16,873 nucleotides of DNA from a virus. Its lineage: Duplodnaviria; Heunggongvirae; Uroviricota; Caudoviricetes. The stretch's first letter is position 1. The number at the start of each line of letters is the position of its first letter. Under the pieces are notes generated by a model. It worked only from the letters and a program-made list of their open reading frames with translations. It made no database searches and was not told where the DNA came from. The stretch covers positions 1 to 16,873 of the IMG/VR virus record IMGVR_UViG_3300030021_000029. One strand, 5' to 3'. This document shows positions 6,970-15,655 of the stretch, piece after piece. The position numbers and the translations under genes were made by a program.

Positions 6970-8015
6970 TGGGAAAGAGTAAGAAAAACCGCGCTGCGGC
7001 GATGAATCACATCCAGCATAAAAGCCAGACTTCAGCCGAAGCATTCAGCTTCGGCGATCCCGTTCCTGTTCTGGACCGCCGAGAATTACTGGACTATGTG
7101 GAATGCGTACAGATGGACCGTTGGTATGAGCCGCCCGTCAGCTTTGACGGACTGGCGCGCACCTTCCGCGCCGCCGTGCATCACAGTTCCCCGATTGCAG
7201 TAAAGTGCAACATTCTGACCAGTACCTATATCCCTCATCCGCTGCTCAGCCAGCAGGCTTTTTCGCGTTTTGTGCAGGACTATCTGGTATTTGGTAACGC
7301 CTACCTGGAGAAACGCACGAACCGCTTCGGTGAAGTTATCGCCCTTGAACCGACCCTGGCAAAATACACCCGACGCGGATTAGACCTGGATACCTACTGG
7401 TTTGTGCAATACGGCATGACTACGCAGCCGTATCAGTTCACGAAAGGCAGCATTTTTCATCTGATGGAACCGGACATCAACCAGGAGATCTACGGCCTGC
7501 CCGGTTATCTTTCTGCCATTCCGTCAGCCCTGCTCAACGAGTCCGCCACGCTGTTCCGCCGCAAGTATTACATTAACGGCAGTCATGCAGGCTTCATCAT
7601 GTACATGACCGATGCAGCGCAGAACCAGGAGGATGTGAACAACCTCCGCAATGCGATGAAAAGCGCCAAAGGTCCTGGTAACTTCCGTAACCTGTTTATG
7701 TACTCGCCTAACGGTAAAAAGGACGGGCTTCAGATTATCCCGTTGTCAGAAGTGGCGGCGAAGGATGAGTTCCTGAATATCAAGAACGTGAGCCGGGACG
7801 ACATGATGGCGGCGCATCGTGTGCCGCCACAAATGATGGGGATAATGCCTAATAATGTCGGGGGGTTTGGGGATGTAGAAAAGGCAAGCCGTGTCTTTGT
7901 CCGCAACGAGTTGATACCTCTGCAGAAACGCCTACAGGAACTTAACAACTGGCTGGGCGATGAAGTTATACGTTTCGAGCCGTACACTTTAGATATTCAG
8001 AATGAAAAGAAATAA
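6969..8015 (+). CDS. Q: Portal protein gpQ-like
   Basis: 348 aa from ATG at 6969 (the track's 6966 start is TTG); directly downstream of terminase. Confidence 0.9.
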   Translation: MGKSKKNRAAAMNHIQHKSQTSAEAFSFGDPVPVLDRRELLDYVECVQMDRWYEPPVSFDGLARTFRAAVHHSSPIAVKCNILTSTYIPHPLLSQQAFSRFVQDYLVFGNAYLEKRTNRFGEVIALEPTLAKYTRRGLDLDTYWFVQYGMTTQPYQFTKGSIFHLMEPDINQEIYGLPGYLSAIPSALLNESATLFRRKYYINGSHAGFIMYMTDAAQNQEDVNNLRNAMKSAKGPGNFRNLFMYSPNGKKDGLQIIPLSEVAAKDEFLNIKNVSRDDMMAAHRVPPQMMGIMPNNVGGFGDVEKASRVFVRNELIPLQKRLQELNNWLGDEVIRFEPYTLDIQNEKK

Positions 8016-8069: not shown

Positions 8070-8339
8070 TTACCAATTTCTTTTTTCGGAGTTTAGCCAA
8101 TCACCGCATGGATAATATCTTGACGCCCATTCACCTTGTAAACGAGCTACAAACAGAATATCGTTACTATCGACCCTGGCTTGGAGTCCGTCACGCAGTT
8201 GAGTTGCGGTCAGCGTTGTATCTACTAACCAAAATGATTCAAGATATTTACAGTATGTAAATTGCTTTAGATAGTCAAAAACTTCATCGTAGTTTCTTCC
8301 CGGAGCCTTCAAGTCATAGGTTATACAATAAATAGCCAT
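8070..8339 (-). CDS. Hypothetical 89-aa protein, second gene of AT-rich two-gene cassette
   Basis: ATG at 8339, 3 nt after the upstream gene's TAG with GGAG inside that gene's 3' end (translational coupling); clearly AT-rich versus flanking phage genes; no family recognised. Confidence 0.55.
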   Translation of the reverse strand: MAIYCITYDLKAPGRNYDEVFDYLKQFTYCKYLESFWLVDTTLTATQLRDGLQARVDSNDILFVARLQGEWASRYYPCGDWLNSEKRNW

Positions 8340-8342
8340 TCT

Positions 8343-8525
8343 CTAAGCTCCGCATTTTTTATCATTTGGGGAACATCTTAACCTGCGACATTTGCGGCAA
8401 TACGATTGAGGGATCAGCCGCTCTCCTTCCATAGTTCTAAAACCAAACACTTCTTCAATTTTGTTCAAATCACCACTTGCAATAACCCCACAGCAGGGGC
8501 AGACAGCCTCAATTTGAAATGCCAT
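8343..8525 (-). CDS. Hypothetical small zinc-ribbon protein, first gene of AT-rich cassette
   Basis: Track ORF 8343..8588 starts at a TTG; ATG at 8525 has GGAG 8 nt upstream (alternative ATG at 8537). Cys pattern CPCC...(about 30 aa)...CRKC suggests a four-Cys zinc ribbon. Confidence 0.5.
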   Translation of the reverse strand: MAFQIEAVCPCCGVIASGDLNKIEEVFGFRTMEGERLIPQSYCRKCRRLRCSPNDKKCGA

Positions 8526-8624
8526 GTCTATCTCCATTCCACATGTTGAATGTAGGGTAATACTTCCTTTCAAGCAAAAATGAGACAAGGATCTTGAAAC
8601 CTAATTTAAACTTGCTTGCGCGCG

Positions 8625-8643
8625 CTCGTATCCCCGCCACGCC
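8625..8643. other. Candidate cos (cohesive end) site
   Basis: Reverse complement reads GGCGTGGCGGGGATACGAG; the first 13 nt equal the 186 cohesive-end sequence as I recall it (GGCGTGGCGGGGAAAGCAT). Located between replication gene A and portal Q, where cos lies in P2/186. Confidence 0.5.
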
Positions 8644-8685
8644 TGCCCGCTTTATGTAGTGGTTTTCATGCACCTGCATGATCTA

Positions 8686-8712
8686 CGCAAAAGCCCGCCA
8701 GTTCTGGCGGGC
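8686..8712 (-). terminator. Rho-independent terminator for the LexA-regulated DinI-like operon
   Basis: GCCCGCCAG-tt-CTGGCGGGC perfect inverted repeat, followed on the minus strand by TTTTGCG. Confidence 0.45.
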
Positions 8713-8847
8713 CTTAGCAAAAACGATCCTCAAACGATCATGCGATCTCATGCGGCATAGACATGCACTACAGAGCTAACGCCTCGCAAGGGCTCGTTGT
8801 TCAACCTTGCTGACGCCAGAAGCAAGTTCAGACGCCAGCAACGTTTC

Positions 8848-9081
8848 TTAATGCAGCCAGCTGTCGTCTTCCCACACCTTCTGCATAATTTTCATCACTT
8901 GTTTTCTTTCTTCGTCCAGTTGCAGTCCGGTTAGTTCCACCCCGTTAGAGCTACCTTTGCGAATGCGAATTACCGTTTTGGGATACAGGGGGCGCAGATT
9001 GCGGTAAAGCTCGGATTCAAGGGCGTCCAGGGTAGACTGGCTAATCTTCTGCTCTTTATCGATCATTATTTCAATGCGCAT
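8848..9081 (-). CDS. DinI-family protein
   Basis: 77 aa from ATG at 9081 (GAGGTG SD); MRIEIMIDKEQ...ALESEL...KIMQKVWEDDSWLH resembles E. coli DinI in length and pattern. Confidence 0.8.
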   Translation of the reverse strand: MRIEIMIDKEQKISQSTLDALESELYRNLRPLYPKTVIRIRKGSSNGVELTGLQLDEERKQVMKIMQKVWEDDSWLH

Positions 9082-9091
9082 AAAAGTCACC

Positions 9092-9280
9092 TCAGCTGAT
9101 GACATCCATTGAGCGGTTGTATTCGTGGGTTCTGATTTTTGCCATGAGTTCATCAGTCAATTCAGAAACCCACTGCAGAGCCAGCCCCTTCTCTTCATCA
9201 CTACACTCACTAGCCGCTACAAGCTTAAGAAAAAAATCAATGCGCTGGAGCTTCAAAGACTCCAAAAAATAGTCCTGCAT
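9092..9280 (-). CDS. Small hypothetical protein, first gene of SOS operon (possible Tum-like antirepressor)
   Basis: 62 aa from ATG at 9280 with strong AGGAGG SD; LexA boxes just upstream; function inferred only from the 186 tum locus position. Confidence 0.55.
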   Translation of the reverse strand: MQDYFLESLKLQRIDFFLKLVAASECSDEEKGLALQWVSELTDELMAKIRTHEYNRSMDVIS

Positions 9281-9307: not shown

Positions 9308-9341
9308 ACTGTATGTATAACCACTGTTTATATTTACAGTA
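9308..9341. promoter_or_regulatory. Tandem overlapping LexA (SOS) boxes in promoter of the DinI-like operon
   Basis: taCTGtatgtataacCAC (9307..9324, one mismatch to CTG-N10-CAG) overlapping aCTGtttatatttaCAGta (9323..9341); minus-strand -35 TTTACA and -10 TATACT candidates are adjacent. Confidence 0.65.
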
Positions 9342-9433: not shown

Positions 9434-11848
9434 TTAATACAGGTTCCGCCACTGATCATCTTCCTGCAAACGCTGGTTCCGATAGAAGATACGCAGGCCT
9501 GCTCCTGACGGAATACTGCCGCCGCGAAGGAGTAAATCGACCTCTTTCTCGCTGCCATCAAATCCTCTGGACTTCAGCTCATACACGAGCTGCAGTCGCT
9601 GATGGTCTGTAATTCGCTGTTTGTAGTCTTTACGCCGTTTCGGTTTCACCAGGCGTAACCTTGCTGCCAGTTCCCGGCGCTCTTTATTGCTCATACTGTG
9701 CAGGTAATCGTGCAACTCCTTGTCATCCATGCTGGTAATGTCCGTTCTGGGGTCCCCATCAGCTGATTTATCTTTCTCCTGTTGGTTCAAATTTTCAGCA
9801 AGGGGACAGTTATTGCCACGAGTCCAAGGGGCGCAAGCGCCCTGGTCGGCTGCCGCCTCCTGAACGTCAACGGCTTTACGAACCATTTTCCACTTCACTG
9901 CATGAGTGCAGATCTTGCCCTCTGCAATGGGTGACCAGATGCCATAAATACGAATGCCGTGATCGCCATAGGCGGTCGGCTCTTCGTTGATTTCATAAGC
10001 GGTTCTGATGAGGTGATATTTACGGGGAACCAGTACGCCGCCCTGCTTCATGATGTAGGTGGCAAAACAACCAGCATCAGCAGCAGCCAGAATGGCATCA
10101 AGACGCGGGTTATCCAGTACCGGCGCACCTGCTTTTTTGTCACCCTGTTGCCTTGCCGCCTGACCAGCCAGCAAGCGAAGTTCACGGTAAGCCTGACGCC
10201 CCGGAATACCAAAGAAGCGGAATTGCTGAACACGATGCAGAGACGCCCAGGCATTCACGTATTCAGCGTTATCACGCAGAGATTTACCCGTTTCCTTGCT
10301 GATCTCGCCAGCCAGACCACGCCCGTCAATGTTCTTACTGATATATTTCGCGATGTAGCTTGTCGGCGTTCCTTTGCGCGGGTTAATCAACTCAGACTTA
10401 AAGCGCGGCCCAGTGTTATTGCCCAGCTCCTCGCGGTCTTCACGGATGGCAAACTTACGCAGTAATGCAGTGATGGCACGGCGGTCTTTTTTGCGCATGA
10501 AACACAACAGGTGCCAGTGAACTGTGCCATCATGATGCGGCTCAGCCACCCGCACGCCATACCAGCGCAACCCAGCTTTGTGCATCGCCTTACGAAATGC
10601 AGCAAACATGCCGACCAGATAATCGCTGCTTTGTCTTACCGTCGCGTTTGTCCAGGTCGGGTTTGGTCTGCCGTTATTTAGCGTGGAATGGAAACGCGAC
10701 GGACAGGTGATAGTGTAGAAAACGGCGCAGTCACCGCGCATTTCCGCGATAAGCTCCAGACCTTTAACACAGGCCATCATCTCATTGCGGCGATGCGCAG
10801 GGTTGCTGCTGCTGGCGTTTACCACATCCTCCATGTCCAGCGTGTCGCCGTCTTCGTTCACCAGTTCATGAGAACGGAAAAACTCCAGCGACTTACGGCG
10901 CTGCTCACGTTTATGCATCACGGCTTCATAGCTGACATAAGGAGATGCTTTTTTGCTGACCAGGCAAACAGCGCGCAACTGCTCTTCCCGCCATTCGCAA
11001 CGCATCTTCCATAATTTCCGATACCACCAGTCGGCGCACAACATACGCGCCAGCGAACCCGGAATGAGTTCATAGGGCACGGGTTTACGGCGGTTTCTTT
11101 TCCGACGGAGTTGCTCAAACGCAGGTGGGATGACATCCAGACGCAGGGTTTCCGCTGCCACCTTTTCCCATGTCTTGCGGATTTCTTCTGGCTTAACGTC
11201 ATCGGTGGCATACAAATCACCACAAGCTGCATCAAGGCACATACTCATATGCGCAGCTACCAGGGTGGACAGGCGTTTCACCTGATCCTGACTCATTTCA
11301 GGCAGGATCAGCAGGCCGTCCAGCCCTTCATGGCTTGCCATAAAGCGAAAAGATGCAGATAGCTGACTGTCGCGTACATGCTCCAGTCGTTCCAGACATG
11401 GCTTAATCGTCTCACGTAAATAGCGGGAATAAGCCTTTGGCCTGCCCAGGCTGCTGAAGTATTCAATACGTTGCATCAGCGGCTTGCTGATATGGGAAGG
11501 CTGGGCGTTGACGTCCGCCAGAATGACCATGTCTGAATTAAAACGCTGCTGCTCATGCGCCAGCTTTGCCCGGCTAATGAGCTTATCCTGCTCCATTTCG
11601 CGCTGGACAGGATCACGTGATTCATTAAAGAAATAACGCTCCCAGACCTGATCACTCAGTGCCTCGCGGCGCAACTGTTCCTGTTCGTTATCGGCAGCGT
11701 ACAGAGTGATCAGGTTTGAAAGCGTAGAAACCGGCGCAACTTCCGCCGGGTCCAGATAAGGGTTAATGGCCTTTTTCGGGCTGTTCCATGAGAACGCTGC
11801 GGCAGCCTCGTTAAAGCCGCAGCAGTTGTTCATATCGGCATGACTCAT
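9434..11848 (-). CDS. A: Replication initiation protein gpA (rolling-circle HUH endonuclease)
   Basis: 804 aa; HUH-like motif (VHWHLL) and tyrosine pair ([12 protein letters not shown]) typical of phiX174/P2 A-type initiators. Confidence 0.9.
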
Positions 11849-12702
11849 GCACGTACTCCGTACACGGCAGAACTATCCACGCCACGCGAATAATCAAATC
11901 CCATCCAGCAGCGCGGTCCGGAAACAGCAATGATTTCTGTTGCTGATTTACCCTCGCCAGCTGCCACACCGATGCTGCGTTTTACCTTGATATAGTGGTG
12001 AGTAAAATTGCGATACAGCGAACGGATCAGGGATGTGTCACTGTTAGAAACAATGACCGGATGTCCTTCTGATGACCGATGTTCAAGAACGGATGCCAGG
12101 TGATACTGGTCATCTTCAGTGAAACCATCAGTGTGATAGCCGGAAAACGTACCGTCATATGGCGGATCGCAATACACCACATCTCCCGCCTTCAACATCG
12201 CCAGCGTTTCATCAAAGCTGGCGCAGATAAACGTTGCTCGCTGGGCTTTTTCTGCAAATGTGCGAAGTTCTTTTTCAGGGAAATACGGATTTTTATAATT
12301 ACCGTAGGGAATGTTGAAATGCCCGCTCTTGTTATAGCGACATAAACCACGGTAACCGTGACGATTGAGATACAGGAAATATACCGCTTTCATGAAATCA
12401 GTAATTTCAGTTGAGCAGTTAAACTCCTGCCTTATGTTGTAATAAGCCACCTCCCTGTTTGCGATCTCAAATAAAACTCTGGCGCGAGATATAAACGATT
12501 CACAATCAGCGGCAACCTTTTTATAGAGGTTGATTAAATCAGGATTAATATCCGCAACCAGATAGCTGGGATAATCCGTTTCCATCATCACAGCACAGGA
12601 ACCCGCGAAAGGTTCAACCAGTCGCGGGCCAGCAGGAAGGTATTTTTTCAGTTCTGGCATAATGGCGGTTTTATTTCCCGCCCATTTCAGGATAGTGCTC
12701 AT
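11845..12702 (-). CDS. dam: DNA adenine methyltransferase (Dam-like, N6-adenine)
   Basis: 285 aa from ATG at 12702 (GGAGGTG SD; ATGA overlap with upstream stop); ILKWAGNK...VEPFAGS and DPPY motifs; collinear similarity to E. coli Dam (from memory). Confidence 0.85.
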
Positions 12703-12926
12703 ACAGCACCTCCGTTGTAATGTTTGCCTTTCAGTTCTGCGATTTCCTGACAGGTAATGCAAAGCTGCACTCCCGGAATGGCGCGGCGTCGTGCTGGCGG
12801 AATTGGCGCTTCACATTCAATGCAAAGTACGCGTGACACGCCCGGTGATTTGGCACGGGCTGCACGGATATGGCGCTGGCGTTCTTCTTCAACGCGCTGC
12901 TGTACAAGATCCATTGCATCAGCCAT
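12699..12926 (-). CDS. TraR/DksA-family C4 zinc-finger protein
   Basis: 75 aa; C-x2-C...C-x2-C (CIECEAP...LCITCQE). Confidence 0.7.
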   Translation of the reverse strand: MADAMDLVQQRVEEERQRHIRAARAKSPGVSRVLCIECEAPIPPARRRAIPGVQLCITCQEIAELKGKHYNGGAV

Positions 12927-13159
12927 TAGTGGATCTCCTGCGCTTCGTTCTGGATTGCTTCAGCAGTCACGCGCAGCAGTTCTGCCGCTTCCACGTGGTT
13001 TAGCTGGCGGGATGAGATATGACACGCCAGGCTATCAAGGCGAGCAGCCATTGCTTCAGCCCTTGCCCGGCGTTCTTCCAGACGAGCCTCTGTCAGTAAA
13101 ATATTAAGCCCTGCGTCATCCGGTCCGGTTTTAGTCGTGAGGGTTTCAATATTACGCAT
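12926..13159 (-). CDS. Hypothetical early protein
   Basis: 77 aa from ATG at 13159 with AGGAG SD (the track's 13165 start is TTG); Ala/Arg-rich, helical. Confidence 0.55.
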   Translation of the reverse strand: MRNIETLTTKTGPDDAGLNILLTEARLEERRARAEAMAARLDSLACHISSRQLNHVEAAELLRVTAEAIQNEAQEIH

Positions 13160-13226
13160 AATCAATTCTCCTGAATTTAGATAAAGGGATGCCCGGCGGG
13201 TTTACGCCATTAATTTCATTAGTTGG

Positions 13227-13568
13227 TTAATTCGGCATGGTTAGCCGTCTGGGAAATAAGCTCACCACTGCACGAAAATGATTCATTGCTTTAATCAGCT
13301 CCCGCTTTTCGTCAGTGGTCAGCTCATTAATGCTGATGCTATGACGTTCAGCTGGAATTTTTGCCATAAAGAATATGGCAGCCAGTGCCCGTTTATTTTG
13401 TTCGCTATTAATATCGCGTGGATCACGCATATCTTTAATAAACCGCTCAAGCTCTGACTCAATATTCAGACCAAAAACTTTCGCCCTTAACTCCGCAATG
13501 TGATTAAGTCCATTCAGGCGTTCACCGGGGCTTAATGGAACAGTCGCCGCAGCGCCATTAATTGCCAT
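13227..13568 (-). CDS. Hypothetical early protein
   Basis: 113 aa; ATG with GGGGA upstream; in the early rightward operon. Confidence 0.55.
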   Translation of the reverse strand: MAINGAAATVPLSPGERLNGLNHIAELRAKVFGLNIESELERFIKDMRDPRDINSEQNKRALAAIFFMAKIPAERHSISINELTTDEKRELIKAMNHFRAVVSLFPRRLTMPN

Positions 13569-13590
13569 AATTCATATCCCCAAAACGCAA

Positions 13591-13815
13591 CTATCGTTCT
13601 TTGTCCTTACGGTAACGTTCAAGAGGAGATACATTTTTTCGTATCGTCTCTTTAACCTGCTCTCCCCGTAAAAACGTCCCATCCTTTAGCGTGAAAAAGT
13701 AACTGCCATCGCCCGACAACGACGGATAACAACAGAGCAAATCATCTTCAGGTACTGAATAACTCTCCCCTCTGTAACGAAACTGATAAACCACTTCACT
13801 TTCCGCTGCATACAT
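13591..13815 (-). CDS. Hypothetical early protein (74 aa)
   Basis: ATG at 13815, GGAG upstream; protein-like composition; overlaps next ORF in a different frame. Confidence 0.5.
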   Translation of the reverse strand: MYAAESEVVYQFRYRGESYSVPEDDLLCCYPSLSGDGSYFFTLKDGTFLRGEQVKETIRKNVSPLERYRKDKER

Positions 13816-13982
13816 TTTGACTTTCTCCGTTTCCTCGTGGTCAATTCAGACAACAATTCATCTTGTGAATGACATGGATGCCAGCGTTTTCCATCCTCAC
13901 CCATGATCCAGCCGTGACCGTAGTGCATTGCCGGACTTTGCTTTACCAGCAGCGATGCAAATGATGGTTCTTTCGTCAGCAT
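13686..13982 (-). CDS. Hypothetical early protein, extent uncertain
   Basis: ATG at 13982 with GAGGTG SD just after cII; its 3' 130 nt overlap ORF 13591..13815 out of frame and translate to low-quality sequence. Confidence 0.3.
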   Translation of the reverse strand: MLTKEPSFASLLVKQSPAMHYGHGWIMGEDGKRWHPCHSQDELLSELTTRKRRKSKCMQRKVKWFISFVTEGRVIQYLKMICSVVIRRCRAMAVTFSR

Positions 13983-13989
13983 AAGCACC

Positions 13990-14499
13990 TCACAGCAAAC
14001 CGAATGAAGCACCGAGGCCAGTCACGGTATCAACTGCACTCGCCATCGCAGGGTTAGCCTGTAAACGGGCCTGCAATGAAACAGCAGCCAACGCCATCAG
14101 TCGTGTTACAGAGTTAATGCTGCTGATAGCATCACGACGACCTGCACTGGTTTTTACATCGCCAGATACCGCACCTGCAGCAACACGCCCGATCTCTGCG
14201 GTTGCACTCATGACGTAATGTGGCAGTTTCTCTTTTGCCACCTCATTAATCGGTACGCATGGCAGGCAGTGAATCTGAGCCAGAAAACCATCTACCAGCG
14301 TTGAATCTTCAGTCAGATCGGTAAGCAGCCAGATTTCTGGTGCGGTTAATAAATGAGGTTGAGCTGGGTTCAGCTTGTTCCGCAGAATCTGCACATTCAT
14401 GCCAGCACGTTCTGCCAGTTGCACCAGGTTGTGGCGCAATGCGAATGCACGACAGGCTTCATCAAAATGTGGATGTTTGGAAACTTGGTAATCAAACAT
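13990..14499 (-). CDS. cII: CII-like lysogeny-establishment regulator (phage 186 type)
   Basis: 169 aa from ATG at 14499 (track start 14505 is TTG); N-terminus [19 protein letters not shown] matches my recollection of 186 CII; follows apl. Confidence 0.8.
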
Positions 14500-14531
14500 G
14501 GTCAATGCCTCTGATGTATCTCAGAATCGAA

Positions 14532-14753
14532 CTAATTAAGGTTTAGATTGCATTCTGAAAGCGCATCAACGGTCATTGCTGCTATGTTGATCATCACTTT
14601 TTCGCGTTTTTTATCTTTGCGCAGACGGTGACGGATAAGGCGTCCATCAGCCAACATGTCATTGATGGTATCGATGGATAGCCCTGTCAGCTCGCTATAG
14701 CGTTCAATAGTCACATGAGGCGTGGTAAGAGTGATTGAAATGTTAGGTCTCAT
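14532..14753 (-). CDS. apl: Apl/Cox-like excisionase and lytic-promoter repressor
   Basis: 73 aa; HTH-like ([21 protein letters not shown]); first gene of the early lytic operon, divergent from cI. Confidence 0.7.
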
Positions 14754-14825
14754 GATGCAACATTCCTCGTTTAATGATGATTAATCAGGACGAATACGGA
14801 TCGTTTGTATTTTGTGAACACCATA

Positions 14826-14854
14826 AACATACGATCGCACATTGAAATCGTCAA
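14826..14854 (-). promoter_or_regulatory. Candidate early lytic promoter (pR-like) for apl-cII
   Basis: Minus strand reads TTGACG - 17 nt - TATGTT; sits near the cI start and points toward apl. Confidence 0.45.
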
Positions 14855-14878
14855 GATAAAAGTTCACTTGGAGTGACC

Positions 14879-15448
14879 ATGAATTTGGAGAAAGGCGGAC
14901 GAGGCGCTATAGAGCGCATGGTAGAAGCTTATGGATTCAAGACTCGACAGGCGTTGTGCGATCATTTAGGAATCTCTAAAAGTACACTCGCCACACGCTA
15001 CATGCGTGACTCATTCCCAGCAGAATGGGTAATCCAGTGCGCCCTTGAAACAGGCACCTCGCTTAATTGGCTCACAACCGGGCATGGTTCAAAGCAAACT
15101 TCAGGTAATACAAATACTATGGAAGTTGCTAAATATGTATTATCTGATGGTGCCTTGCGTGAAGACGGTTTTTATATTTTTGATAAGGGATTTCTACCCT
15201 CTACGTTTAAAAAACCTTTTGTCATCACAGATAACAATTCTGAATTTATTTGTGATAAAGAATTTGATGATATACGTGATGGTAAATGGGTAATAAGTAT
15301 TGATGGCGAAATAACAATCCGCGACATTACTCGTTTACCCGGTGGAAGAATCTTCGTTGAAGGTGGAAACAGAGCCTTCGAGTGCAAGATAGAAGATGTT
15401 GAAATAATTGGAAAAATTATAAGTTTAACAATTAAGTACGTTAGGTAA
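14879..15448 (+). CDS. cI: CI-like immunity repressor (186 type, HTH N-terminal domain)
   Basis: 189 aa from ATG at 14879 (GGAG SD; the track's 14873 start is GTG); HTH (TRQALCDHLGISKSTLATRYM); size fits 186 CI (about 192 aa), not P2 C (99 aa). Confidence 0.75.
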   Translation: MNLEKGGRGAIERMVEAYGFKTRQALCDHLGISKSTLATRYMRDSFPAEWVIQCALETGTSLNWLTTGHGSKQTSGNTNTMEVAKYVLSDGALREDGFYIFDKGFLPSTFKKPFVITDNNSEFICDKEFDDIRDGKWVISIDGEITIRDITRLPGGRIFVEGGNRAFECKIEDVEIIGKIISLTIKYVR

Positions 15449-15463
15449 TACCGGGAGGAAACT

Positions 15464-15655
15464 ATGCTTGGTAAGGTATTTTTTGTGGTTTTATCATGCT
15501 CTTTGTTATTAAACCCACTAACTACCTATGCTAAAAATTATCCTTGTTCTGGGAAAAAAGGAGGTGTCTCTCACTGTACCTCCGATGGAAAGTTCGTTTG
15601 CAATGATGGAACTATTAGTAAATCAAAAAAAATCTGTACTAAAAACTCGCGATAA
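15464..15655 (+). CDS. Small secreted Cys-rich protein (moron)
   Basis: 63 aa; strong GGGAGGA SD; N-terminal signal peptide ([19 protein letters not shown]), mature about 40 aa with 4 Cys and many Lys; AT-rich. Confidence 0.55.

Follow-up and report, generated by a model that had tools for sequence, protein, structure and literature searches.

A putative orphan Dam methylase as accessory cargo of the early lytic operon in a 186/Fels-2-type prophage

What purpose does a DNA adenine methylase gene serve in the early lytic operon of a P2-family phage, where it follows a TraR-like zinc-finger gene and precedes replication gene A? The question is raised by a Caudoviricetes record (IMGVR_UViG_3300030021_000029), analysed here as a stretch of 16,873 nucleotides, hereafter the window. 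A preliminary description had suggested that the methylase could protect phage DNA from restriction or modulate GATC-dependent processes of the host. As read from the sequence, the gene probably encodes a functional orphan Dam, most likely directed at the adenine of GATC and carried as accessory cargo between the TraR-like gene and gene A of the early lytic operon, and comparative data favour a role directed at GATC sites in the phage's own DNA while it replicates lytically.

The locus and its gene junctions

The genes and control elements of the operon, in window coordinates, are as follows.

9434-11848, minus strand: replication initiator gene A, 804 aa, a rolling-circle nickase of the P2 gpA family
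11845-12702 (stop codon included), minus strand: dam, 285 aa, a Dam-family (D12 class, alpha-type) N6-adenine DNA methyltransferase
12699-12926, minus strand: TraR/DksA-family C4 zinc-finger gene, 75 aa, homologue of P2 orf82
12926-13165, minus strand: DUF2732 gene (PF10809, E=4e-29), homologue of P2 orf80 and 186 orf79
14826-14854, minus strand: pR-like early lytic promoter, TTGACG-17-TATGTT, a consensus-scan match with a presumptive promoter function
14873-15448, plus strand: cI repressor gene, faced by the pR-like promoter

Sequence reading thus gave the minus-strand gene order DUF2732, TraR-like, dam and A. The interval 11845-12926, which the preliminary description had assigned to the methylase, does contain dam but spans two genes, the TraR-like gene plus dam, and not dam alone. 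The TraR-like protein matched PF01258 (43.5 bits against a threshold of 24.9, E=3e-11), TIGR02419 (66.2 bits against a cut-off of 59.7) and phrog_54, and its translation retains all four zinc-binding cysteines (CxxC...CxxC; C35, C38, C56 and C59); profile and cysteines together place the predicted product in the TraR/DksA C4 zinc-finger family. The gene A protein matched PF05840 with 427 bits against a threshold of 31.4 (E=6e-128, profile positions 1-321) and shared 30-32% identity with the A proteins of P2 and 186, including conserved HHD and YISKN blocks; its equivalent in relatives is labelled "replication endonuclease gpA". The host element is a 186/Fels-2-type P2-family (Peduoviridae) prophage, which is very common in E. 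coli.

The junctions between these genes were read directly from the sequence, all on the minus strand.

12924-12928: TAATG overlap of the DUF2732 stop with the TraR-like start
12709-12713: Shine-Dalgarno-like GGAGG, 6 nt before the dam ATG and within the TraR-like gene
12699-12702: ATGA overlap of the TraR-like TGA (12701-12699) with the dam ATG
11856-11859: Shine-Dalgarno-like GGAG, 7 nt before the gene A ATG
11845-11848: ATGA overlap of the dam TGA (11847-11845) with the gene A ATG (11848-11846)

The ATGA overlaps previously described at both ends of dam are therefore present, and the TAATG overlap is an addition to them. Among 70 related loci that bear Dam, the 4-nt TraR/dam overlap occurred in 53, whereas the dam/A junction showed a 4-nt overlap in 41, other overlaps (1-31 nt) in 15 and an intervening gene in 14, which makes 56 loci with overlapping dam and A; in four Peduoviridae genera, gene A directly follows dam. 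Since co-directional genes of bacteria and phages are most often arranged with 4-nt overlaps, this pattern is unremarkable. Nevertheless, the overlaps suggest that TraR, dam and A may be translationally coupled. The record of phage 186 states that [quoted passage not shown], and the variable cargo slot that dam fills, with the TraR-like gene on one side and gene A on the other, matches the position of 186 orf84. Close relatives with no gene between TraR and A exist, indicating that Dam is dispensable both for the phage and for expression of A.

Profile and defence-system scans of the window neighbours found no restriction endonuclease gene near dam. Most of the neighbours are phage genes (TraR, DUF2732, DUF5347, CII, Cox, gpA and DinI), and the few remaining ORFs gave no nuclease match. 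The best PADLOC model for dam was "oMTase", orphan methyltransferase. Given that no restriction enzyme is nearby, dam is an orphan methylase and not the methylase of a type II restriction-modification system. Profiles, neighbours and PADLOC thus agree with the original proposal of an orphan Dam-like N6-adenine methyltransferase located in the early operon between a TraR-like zinc finger and gene A.

The Dam protein and its predicted target

The dam open reading frame (11845-12762, minus strand) opens at a TTG, and homology favours the ATG at 12702-12700, which yields the 285-aa protein. This protein matched PF02086 (254 bits against 22, E=2e-75, profile positions 1-253) and TIGR00571 (318 bits against a cut-off of 114.85). 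In a PDB sequence search, residues 4-263 aligned with the E. coli Dam (EcoDam) structures 2g1p and 4gol at E=3e-73. The motif order is that of the alpha type, namely motif I, target-recognition region and motif IV, and is colinear with EcoDam residues 7-270. Two motifs were mapped by alignment.

12595-12612, minus strand: AdoMet-binding motif I, PFAGSC (aa 31-36), a variant of FxGxG
12157-12168, minus strand: catalytic motif IV, DPPY (aa 179-182), aligned with EcoDam D181-Y184

DPPY was unchanged across seven aligned Dam proteins and kept in 67 of 67 intact homologues. In motif I, the last Gly of FxGxG is replaced by Cys (C36), which is invariant in the phage clade; T4 Dam likewise lacks this Gly. 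F32, G34 and the acidic D51, equivalent to the cofactor ribose-binding D54 of EcoDam, were invariant across the seven proteins. Hence the Dam motifs pointed out earlier can be read in the sequence, as DPPY and motif I, with the agreement of PF02086 and TIGR00571, and the catalytic motifs, whose loss on alignment had been named as an outcome that would speak against a methyltransferase, survive alignment to Dam relatives.

The GATC-recognition roles of EcoDam K9, Y119, N120, L122, R124, P134 and Y138 have been described (PMC4417163). Six of these seven contact residues are identical in the window protein, where K6, Y117, L120, R122, P132 and Y136 correspond to EcoDam K9, Y119, L122, R124, P134 and Y138, respectively; the seventh, base-contacting N120, is Arg (R118) here and in the whole clade. 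K6, L120, R122, Y136 and D51 were kept in 67 of 67 intact homologues, and Y117 and P132 in 66 of 67. The contact residues predict GATC as the target. Homologue comparison gave a dN/dS of 0.10-0.29 for dam, which is under purifying selection.

GATC frequency and the role of Dam

The window contains 61 GATC sites versus 58.6 expected from shuffles, so GATC is not depleted within it. Across the P2 family, the observed/expected ratio (O/E) of the methylase-carrying lineages was 0.80 for the window-like lineage, 0.87 for the ev129-like lineage, 0.63 for HP1 and 0.58 for K139, whereas the methylase-free P2-like, 186-like and PSP3 lineages had ratios of 0.25, 0.34 and 0.22. Lineages with Dam therefore have a near-normal GATC frequency (0.58-0.87), while the Dam-less P2, 186 and PSP3 are 3- to 4-fold depleted (0.22-0.34), a contrast drawn from about seven lineages and thus from few independent comparisons. 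The other 4-mer palindromes had ratios of about 0.6-1.2 in every lineage group, and the lineage-level relaxation was specific to GATC among the 16 palindromes. The split was also found in orthologous gene A alone, which holds 9 GATCs (O/E 0.89-0.93) versus 0-2 (0.03-0.31) in Dam-less phages; the P2-type gene has none, against 9 in the orthologue of this phage. Dam-less members within Dam-rich lineages were undepleted (O/E 0.79 and 0.92), which fits recent loss of the gene and equally fits the lack of a causal link.

Host Dam leaves phage DNA under-methylated, and GATC is counter-selected by MutH in enterobacteriophages (PMC5014478). The contrast fits the idea that phage DNA is self-methylated as it replicates, which would relieve the counter-selection against GATC. 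We tentatively suggest, at somewhat less than even confidence, that methylase carriage explains the GATC split of the P2 family, with the phage Dam serving as an escape of its own replicating DNA from MutH/Dam-based counter-selection. The within-family contrast is a tidy natural experiment on why enterobacterial phages avoid GATC.

How Dam might act can be outlined as follows. In the lysogen, CI would hold off the pR-like promoter and the operon would be silent. Upon induction or infection, one polycistronic mRNA would be made, on which ribosomes ending TraR would restart on dam and those ending dam would restart on A; through this shared restart chain Dam would be produced together with the rolling-circle initiator. 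Dam could then methylate the fast-replicating phage DNA, which would otherwise stay under-methylated because host Dam is scarce, and so protect it from cleavage by MutH at unmethylated GATC and probably from being bound by SeqA. The progeny DNA would then depart with its GATC sites fully methylated, and over evolutionary time the selection against GATC sites would have been removed, unlike in Dam-less relatives. Methylase dosage at induction could also affect mismatch repair. A second GATC methylase of this kind cannot be seen by methylome surveys of Dam-positive hosts. Furthermore, phage and host Dam enzymes can set off retron toxin/antitoxin defence (bioRxiv 10.1101/2020.06.22.160242).

The same enzyme might instead serve anti-restriction, pre-methylating progeny against MboI/DpnII-type enzymes or widening the range to hosts that are Dam-negative or restriction-bearing. 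An orphan methylase of predicted GATC specificity suits this role; the PDB match to the DpnII methylase DpnM (E=2e-34) indicates that the family does serve restriction-modification systems, and the GATC contrast is also compatible with Dam-less phages avoiding GATC-cutting enzymes. The relatives, however, come from E. coli, Klebsiella, Salmonella and Yersinia, all of which carry their own Dam. Phage DNA from such hosts should thus already be largely protected, making classical anti-restriction less compelling, and methylated GATC also exposes DNA to DpnI-type enzymes. We consider anti-restriction rather unlikely. It is compatible with the self-methylation of phage DNA proposed above.

A dam gene active in the lysogen could shift host GATC methylation and thereby alter gene expression, mismatch repair or virulence. 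Dam dosage does affect mutation rate and gene regulation in enterobacteria (PMC5014478, PMC7380047), and a K. pneumoniae study raised the speculative possibility that resistance is influenced by the methylase carried on an amplified Fels-2-like prophage (PMC7826664). Such lysogenic conversion is nonetheless improbable, as dam is located far into the early lytic operon and downstream of the pR-like promoter that faces cI. This promoter is the only sigma-70-like site found upstream of the operon on the dam strand, and its arrangement with cI matches pR/pL/cI of phage 186. A search for a separate dam promoter gave no sigma-70-like site on the dam strand from pR to dam, a weak negative given that the scans report consensus matches only. 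That the sole upstream promoter-like site is repressor-controlled argues against a role in lysogens. In addition, P2-type conversion genes occupy other slots (old/tin in P2).

Clade-specific substitutions, such as the Arg at EcoDam N120, might have changed or relaxed the target so that it is not strictly GATC. R118 replaces a base-contacting residue and is invariant in 67 clade members, while Asn occupies this position in E. coli Dam, P1 Dmt and ev129; moreover, EcoDam recognises the first G:C pair less accurately (PMC4417163). Against this, the equivalents of R124, L122, P134, Y119, K9 and Y138 are all kept, the solved-structure relatives listed are all GATC enzymes, and the lineage-level relaxation singles out GATC. 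A changed target is thus very unlikely. If Dam serves as the escape from counter-selection suggested above, the clade-invariant Arg might additionally tune its kinetics or flank preference.

Finally, GATC sites close to cos brought to mind the packaging of P1, which uses methylated GATCs in pac.

8625-8643, minus strand: cos, GGCGTGGCGGGGATACGAG, of the 186 type; the SEN8 record ends exactly there
8680, 8725, 8736 and 8744: four GATC sites no more than 125 bp from cos, with GCATG-type repeats interleaved among them

A search for the exact P2 cos with up to 3 mismatches gave no match. The cargo adjoining cos in the window comprises two small ORFs (8070-8588). Fels-2 has the same four GATCs whereas the last 300 bp of P2 and of 186 contain none, as would be expected if Dam methylated the cluster to license terminase cutting; yet 7 of 9 Dam-less close relatives retain two of the cos-adjoining GATCs, and in 19 of 22 equally distant Dam-bearing loci there are likewise only two. 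Similar counts with and without Dam leave no association beyond relatedness, and the general difference in GATC frequency explains the contrast with P2 and 186. P1-like packaging control, the least probable of these roles, was rejected because cluster size across 74 related loci tracked relatedness and not Dam presence.

Comparison with known systems

The gene is already known. Of 5426 complete E. coli genomes, 1240 contain the same 1082 bp, which span the TraR-like gene and dam, as do 56 deposited phage records; the annotated records among those listed (phage and E. coli) name the gene "DNA adenine methylase". It is an ordinary annotation, carried by roughly one in four complete E. coli genomes. 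Hsu, Inouye and Inouye (1990, PNAS 87:9454) reportedly described the Dam methylase of the 186-related retron-Ec67 prophage, and PMC7826664 cites them for a Dam on this kind of prophage.

Besides these annotations, the 97% identity of the window Dam to the protein named "retron EC67 DNA adenine methylase" by NCBI marks the gene as known; both fall into one 90%-identity cluster, which holds 4038 sequences, and the retron-Ec67 Dam likewise has 285 aa. Both are located on a 186/Fels-2-like prophage of about 34 kb (PMC7826664). Unlike the retron-Ec67 prophage, the window has no retron. A prophage "Dam homolog" of E. coli ST131 EC958, M.EcoMIV, was reported as untranscribed (PMC4659465); it was absent from the two 50-kb EC958 regions examined, and its link to the window dam is unproven. 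Those EC958 regions showed the end of a Mu-like prophage.

Compared with EcoDam (PDB 2G1P), the window Dam is 46% identical to the K-12 protein over almost the full length with the same motif order, and the two share DPPY, the AdoMet-binding residues and six of the seven GATC-contact residues. They differ by N120 to Arg and G39 to Cys, and by a 22-aa C-terminal tail of the window Dam without an EcoDam counterpart. The window Dam scored below the housekeeping equivalog cut-off of NCBIfam NF008152 (287 versus 441 bits) and is not classed as an orthologue of the housekeeping chromosomal Dam. Its gene lies in a repressor-controlled lytic operon, whereas chromosomal dam is in the damX-dam-rpe operon.

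Phage-encoded adenine methylases are also known from P1 (Dmt), T4 (Dam), HP1 and K139. P1 Dmt is a fused bifunctional protein whose Dam domain is 36% identical to the window Dam; T4 Dam is a distant PDB match (E=3e-18), and the HP1 and K139 methylases are short (173 and 205 aa) and sited elsewhere relative to rep. Closer counterparts are the annotated Peduoviridae dam genes of vB_EcoM-813R9, Cartapus, Klebsiella KP12/4LV2017, Salmonella SEN8 and ST13-OXA48phi12.1, which, as in the window, lie immediately upstream of gene A. The closest of them reach a DNA identity of 96-99.8%, and the Dam proteins of SEN8 and ST13-OXA48phi12.1 are 67-73% identical to the window Dam. The neighbours vary: dam/A overlaps of 10 or 20 nt occur in place of the 4 nt of the window, and in SEN8, unlike the window, an exonuclease gene separates TraR from dam. 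In phage 186, orf84 shares with the window dam the slot of last gene before A and the 4-nt overlap with A; it encodes a PAPS-reductase-like protein, not a methylase, and 186, without Dam, is strongly GATC-depleted.

The dam gene and its product

A single tightly packed run of genes occupies positions 9434-14753 of the minus strand of the window, and its layout is that of the early lytic operon of phage 186, with the repressor and integrase genes on the opposite strand.

Early operon and switch region of the window phage
14873-15448, plus: 186-type CI repressor gene, opposite the early operon
plus strand, opposite the early operon: integrase gene
14854-14826: promoter-like site TTGACG-17-TATGTT (pR-like), directed into the early operon
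14532-14753, minus: Cox/Apl-like gene
13990-14505, minus: CII gene
13591-13815, minus: small phrog_4312 gene
13227-13568, minus: DUF5347 gene
12926-13165, minus: DUF2732 gene
12928-12924: TAATG, DUF2732 TAA/TraR ATG junction
12699-12926, minus: TraR/DksA C4 zinc-finger gene, 75 aa
12702-12699: ATGA, TraR TGA/dam ATG junction
11845-12702, minus: Dam-family methyltransferase gene (dam)
11848-11845: ATGA, dam TGA/A ATG junction
9434-11848, minus: replication gene A (rolling-circle initiator gpA)

The interval 11845-12926, which the preliminary description assigned to the methyltransferase, does hold dam, but it also includes the TraR gene. Called mechanically, the dam ORF starts at a TTG at 12762; homology places the start at the ATG at 12702, giving 285 aa, a length equal to that of annotated relatives. 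The ATGA overlaps claimed on both sides of dam were read directly in the bases. Furthermore, a Shine-Dalgarno-like GGAGG lies 6 nt before the dam start codon and a GGAG lies 7 nt before that of A.

The protein matched Pfam PF02086 over the full profile (E=2e-75) and the "Dam family" model TIGR00571 at 318 bits (cut-off 115), and fell under the housekeeping-Dam equivalog cut-off (287 versus 441 bits). Its best solved-structure match was E. coli Dam (E=3e-73, residues 4-263 aligned), followed by DpnM and T4 Dam, and it is 46% identical to K-12 Dam. Alignment located the Dam motifs, with DPPY at aa 179-182 and motif I as F32-A-G34-S-C36, and placed D51 opposite D54 of the E. coli chromosomal enzyme (EcoDam). 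In EcoDam, K9 and Y138 recognize the first base pair; the third is contacted through L122 and P134 and the fourth-position G through R124, Y119 is intercalated, and N120 forms a base hydrogen bond (PMC4417163). Six of these seven GATC-contact residues are identical in the window protein, N120 being replaced by Arg. Across 67 intact IMG/VR homologues K6, L120, R122, Y136, and DPPY were invariant, and Y117 and P132 were kept in 66; Arg118 and Cys36 were invariant within the clade. Pairwise dN/dS of dam was 0.10-0.29 against relatives of 60-93% identity. No restriction enzyme gene was found near dam, and the best PADLOC model was an orphan methyltransferase. Judged by its motifs and contact residues, its dN/dS, and the absence of a nearby restriction gene, dam is an intact orphan gene under selection, encoding a Dam-family enzyme with GATC as the strongly predicted target; the identity first proposed for it was correct.

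The gene is already known and routinely annotated, and hence of low interest in itself, as shown by phage and E. coli records and by the retron-Ec67 literature. Identity of the 1082-bp segment is 99.8% with Escherichia phage vB_EcoM-813R9 and 96-97% with phage Cartapus and numerous Klebsiella phages; their records label the gene "DNA adenine methylase" and show it between a zinc-finger protein and gpA. Of 5426 complete E. coli genomes, 1240 contain the segment, and RefSeq annotation among the records listed reads DNA adenine methylase, TraR/DksA family transcriptional regulator, and replication endonuclease. The exact protein occurs in at least 1000 contigs. It belongs to a 90% cluster of 4038 sequences, and one of these, "retron EC67 DNA adenine methylase," is 97% identical to it. 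According to PMC7826664, publication of a Dam methylase ORF in the 34-kb retron-Ec67 element dates from 1990 (Hsu, Inouye & Inouye), and the element was afterwards recognized as a 186-related prophage (Dodd & Egan 1996). The same paper tabulates an identical gene order for a Klebsiella Fels-2-like prophage: DUF2732, TraR/DksA, 858-bp DNA adenine methylase, and 2415-bp replication endonuclease.

GATC frequency and the role of dam

The one result here that goes beyond existing annotation is an association between methylase carriage and GATC frequency. Observed/expected GATC frequency (O/E, second-order Markov expectation) was determined in 80 loci per lineage, of ~4-22 kb (mostly 13-18 kb) around gene A (L096-L255 versus L016-L095 and L256-L335), and in three whole genomes (L336-L338).

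Methylase carriage and GATC O/E in the P2 family
Window-like lineage: Dam in 69/80; 0.80
ev129-like lineage: Dam-like in 72/80; 0.87
P2-like lineage: methylase in 0/80; 0.25
186-like lineage: methylase in 0/80; 0.34
HP1, whole genome: short methylase; 0.63
K139, whole genome: short methylase; 0.58
PSP3, whole genome: no methylase; 0.22

The split within the Peduoviridae was strong and GATC-specific, with 0.22-0.34 in P2-like, 186-like, and PSP3 versus 0.58-0.87 in Dam-carrying lineages, although it covers only about seven lineages and amounts to an association. The fifteen other 4-bp palindromes had O/E of ~0.6-1.2 in every group. Gene A alone held a median of 9 GATCs in the window-like (O/E 0.89) and ev129-like (O/E 0.93) lineages, 2 in the 186-like (O/E 0.31), and 0 in the P2-like (O/E 0.03). 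Dam-less members of the Dam-rich lineages were not depleted (O/E 0.79 and 0.92), as expected after recent loss but equally compatible with no causal link.

This contrast fits the classical picture, as discussed in PMC5014478, in which host Dam is limiting, so that fast-replicating phage DNA is under-methylated, and MutH acts on unmethylated GATC, so that GATC is selected against in enterobacterial phages (McClelland 1984; Deschavanne & Radman 1991). A phage with its own Dam would escape this selection. Methylase carriage goes with relaxed GATC avoidance in the P2 family, supporting a GATC-directed role in vivo.

Since the pR-like site facing cI is the only promoter-like site found upstream on the dam strand, dam would be silent in lysogens, and its product would be made together with gpA when rolling-circle replication begins. 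An anti-restriction role is possible but less compelling, because known hosts are Dam+. Lysogenic conversion by dam is disfavored by its placement within the repressed lytic operon, and a changed target is disfavored by both the conserved contact residues and the GATC-specific frequency signal. A retron toxin/antitoxin system can be triggered by phage and host Dam enzymes (bioRxiv 10.1101/2020.06.22.160242), which would be a cost of dam, not its purpose.

The switch region itself contains GATC at 14833-14836, in the pR-like promoter's spacer immediately before the -10, and at 14799-14802, ~25 nt downstream of that promoter.

The slot upstream of gene A

Comparison of relatives revealed a variable slot, bounded by the TraR gene and gene A.

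Slot contents
P2: orf83 (DUF5405)
186: exonuclease, DUF5405, PAPS-reductase-like orf84
SEN8: exonuclease and Dam
ev129: exonuclease, RNA-binding protein, two methylases
Eight close IMG/VR relatives of the window phage: empty
L091, a close relative: PAPS-reductase-like gene (296-1342)
L082: 157-aa ORF

Because slot content varies, and is nil in close relatives, Dam is dispensable cargo. DNA-modification-type genes recur at the slot position directly before gene A in different lineages: in phage ESSI2_ev129 a second methyltransferase (L005 4343-5353) follows the Dam-like gene, and PAPS-reductase-like genes occur in L091 and 186 (orf84, L015 4244-5248).

Whichever gene comes last usually overlaps the A start; of 70 Dam-bearing loci, 41 had an overlap of 4 nt, 15 had one of 1-31 nt, and 14 had an intervening gene. 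According to the 186 GenBank record, A translation appears to need translation through the orf84 end, and a terminator early in A would act if A were untranslated. The 186 orf84/A junction is an experimental precedent for the translational coupling suggested in the preliminary description; in the window phage, the overlaps and Shine-Dalgarno-like sequences suggest such coupling.

The cos region, cargo, and putative SOS genes

The 186-type cohesive-end site, cos (GGCGTGGCGGGGATACGAG, 8625-8643, minus strand), was located from its 186-type overhang sequence and from the SEN8 genome record, whose end falls exactly at window 8644. GCATG-type repeats adjoin it, and four GATCs (8680-8747) lie within 125 bp on its right-end side; Fels-2 has the same four, whereas P2 and 186 have none. 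Packaging of P1 is Dam-dependent. Such packaging via the cos-side cluster was rejected here, as site number across 74 related loci tracked relatedness, not Dam presence. A GC-rich hairpin beside cos (8693-8718, minus strand), followed by a T-run, probably terminates the SOS/early transcripts, as t95b does in 186.

Two small cargo ORFs (8070-8339 and 8343-8588, minus) lie between portal gene Q, which ends at 8015, and cos. One encodes 89 aa (phrog_1090) with a weak Cas2-like PADLOC match (E=5e-4), the other a Cys-rich protein of 60-81 aa (phrog_19700), and the two may form a toxin-antitoxin or defense pair. Relatives carry other cargo in this slot, such as a Hypoth_Ymh protein in vB_EcoM-813R9, and the insertion site of the Ec67 and Ec86 retrons adjoins cos. 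A candidate lysogenic-conversion gene lies in the cI-int slot: an ORF of 63 aa (15464-15655, plus; phrog_6000) whose product has a hydrophobic, signal-like N-terminal segment along with several cysteines. Relatives carry other cargo there; K139 has glo, PSP3 has DUF2511, and 813R9 has a 1.7-kb ATPase gene.

A perfect LexA-box core (CTG-N10-CAG, ACTGTTTATATTTACAGTA) at 9324-9339 precedes minus-strand ORFs 9092-9280 and 8848-9153, a 62-aa phrog_698 gene and then a DinI-family gene. This arrangement resembles PSP3 tumA/tumB and the LexA-controlled p95-tum operon of 186, and the window prophage is probably SOS-inducible via an antirepressor.
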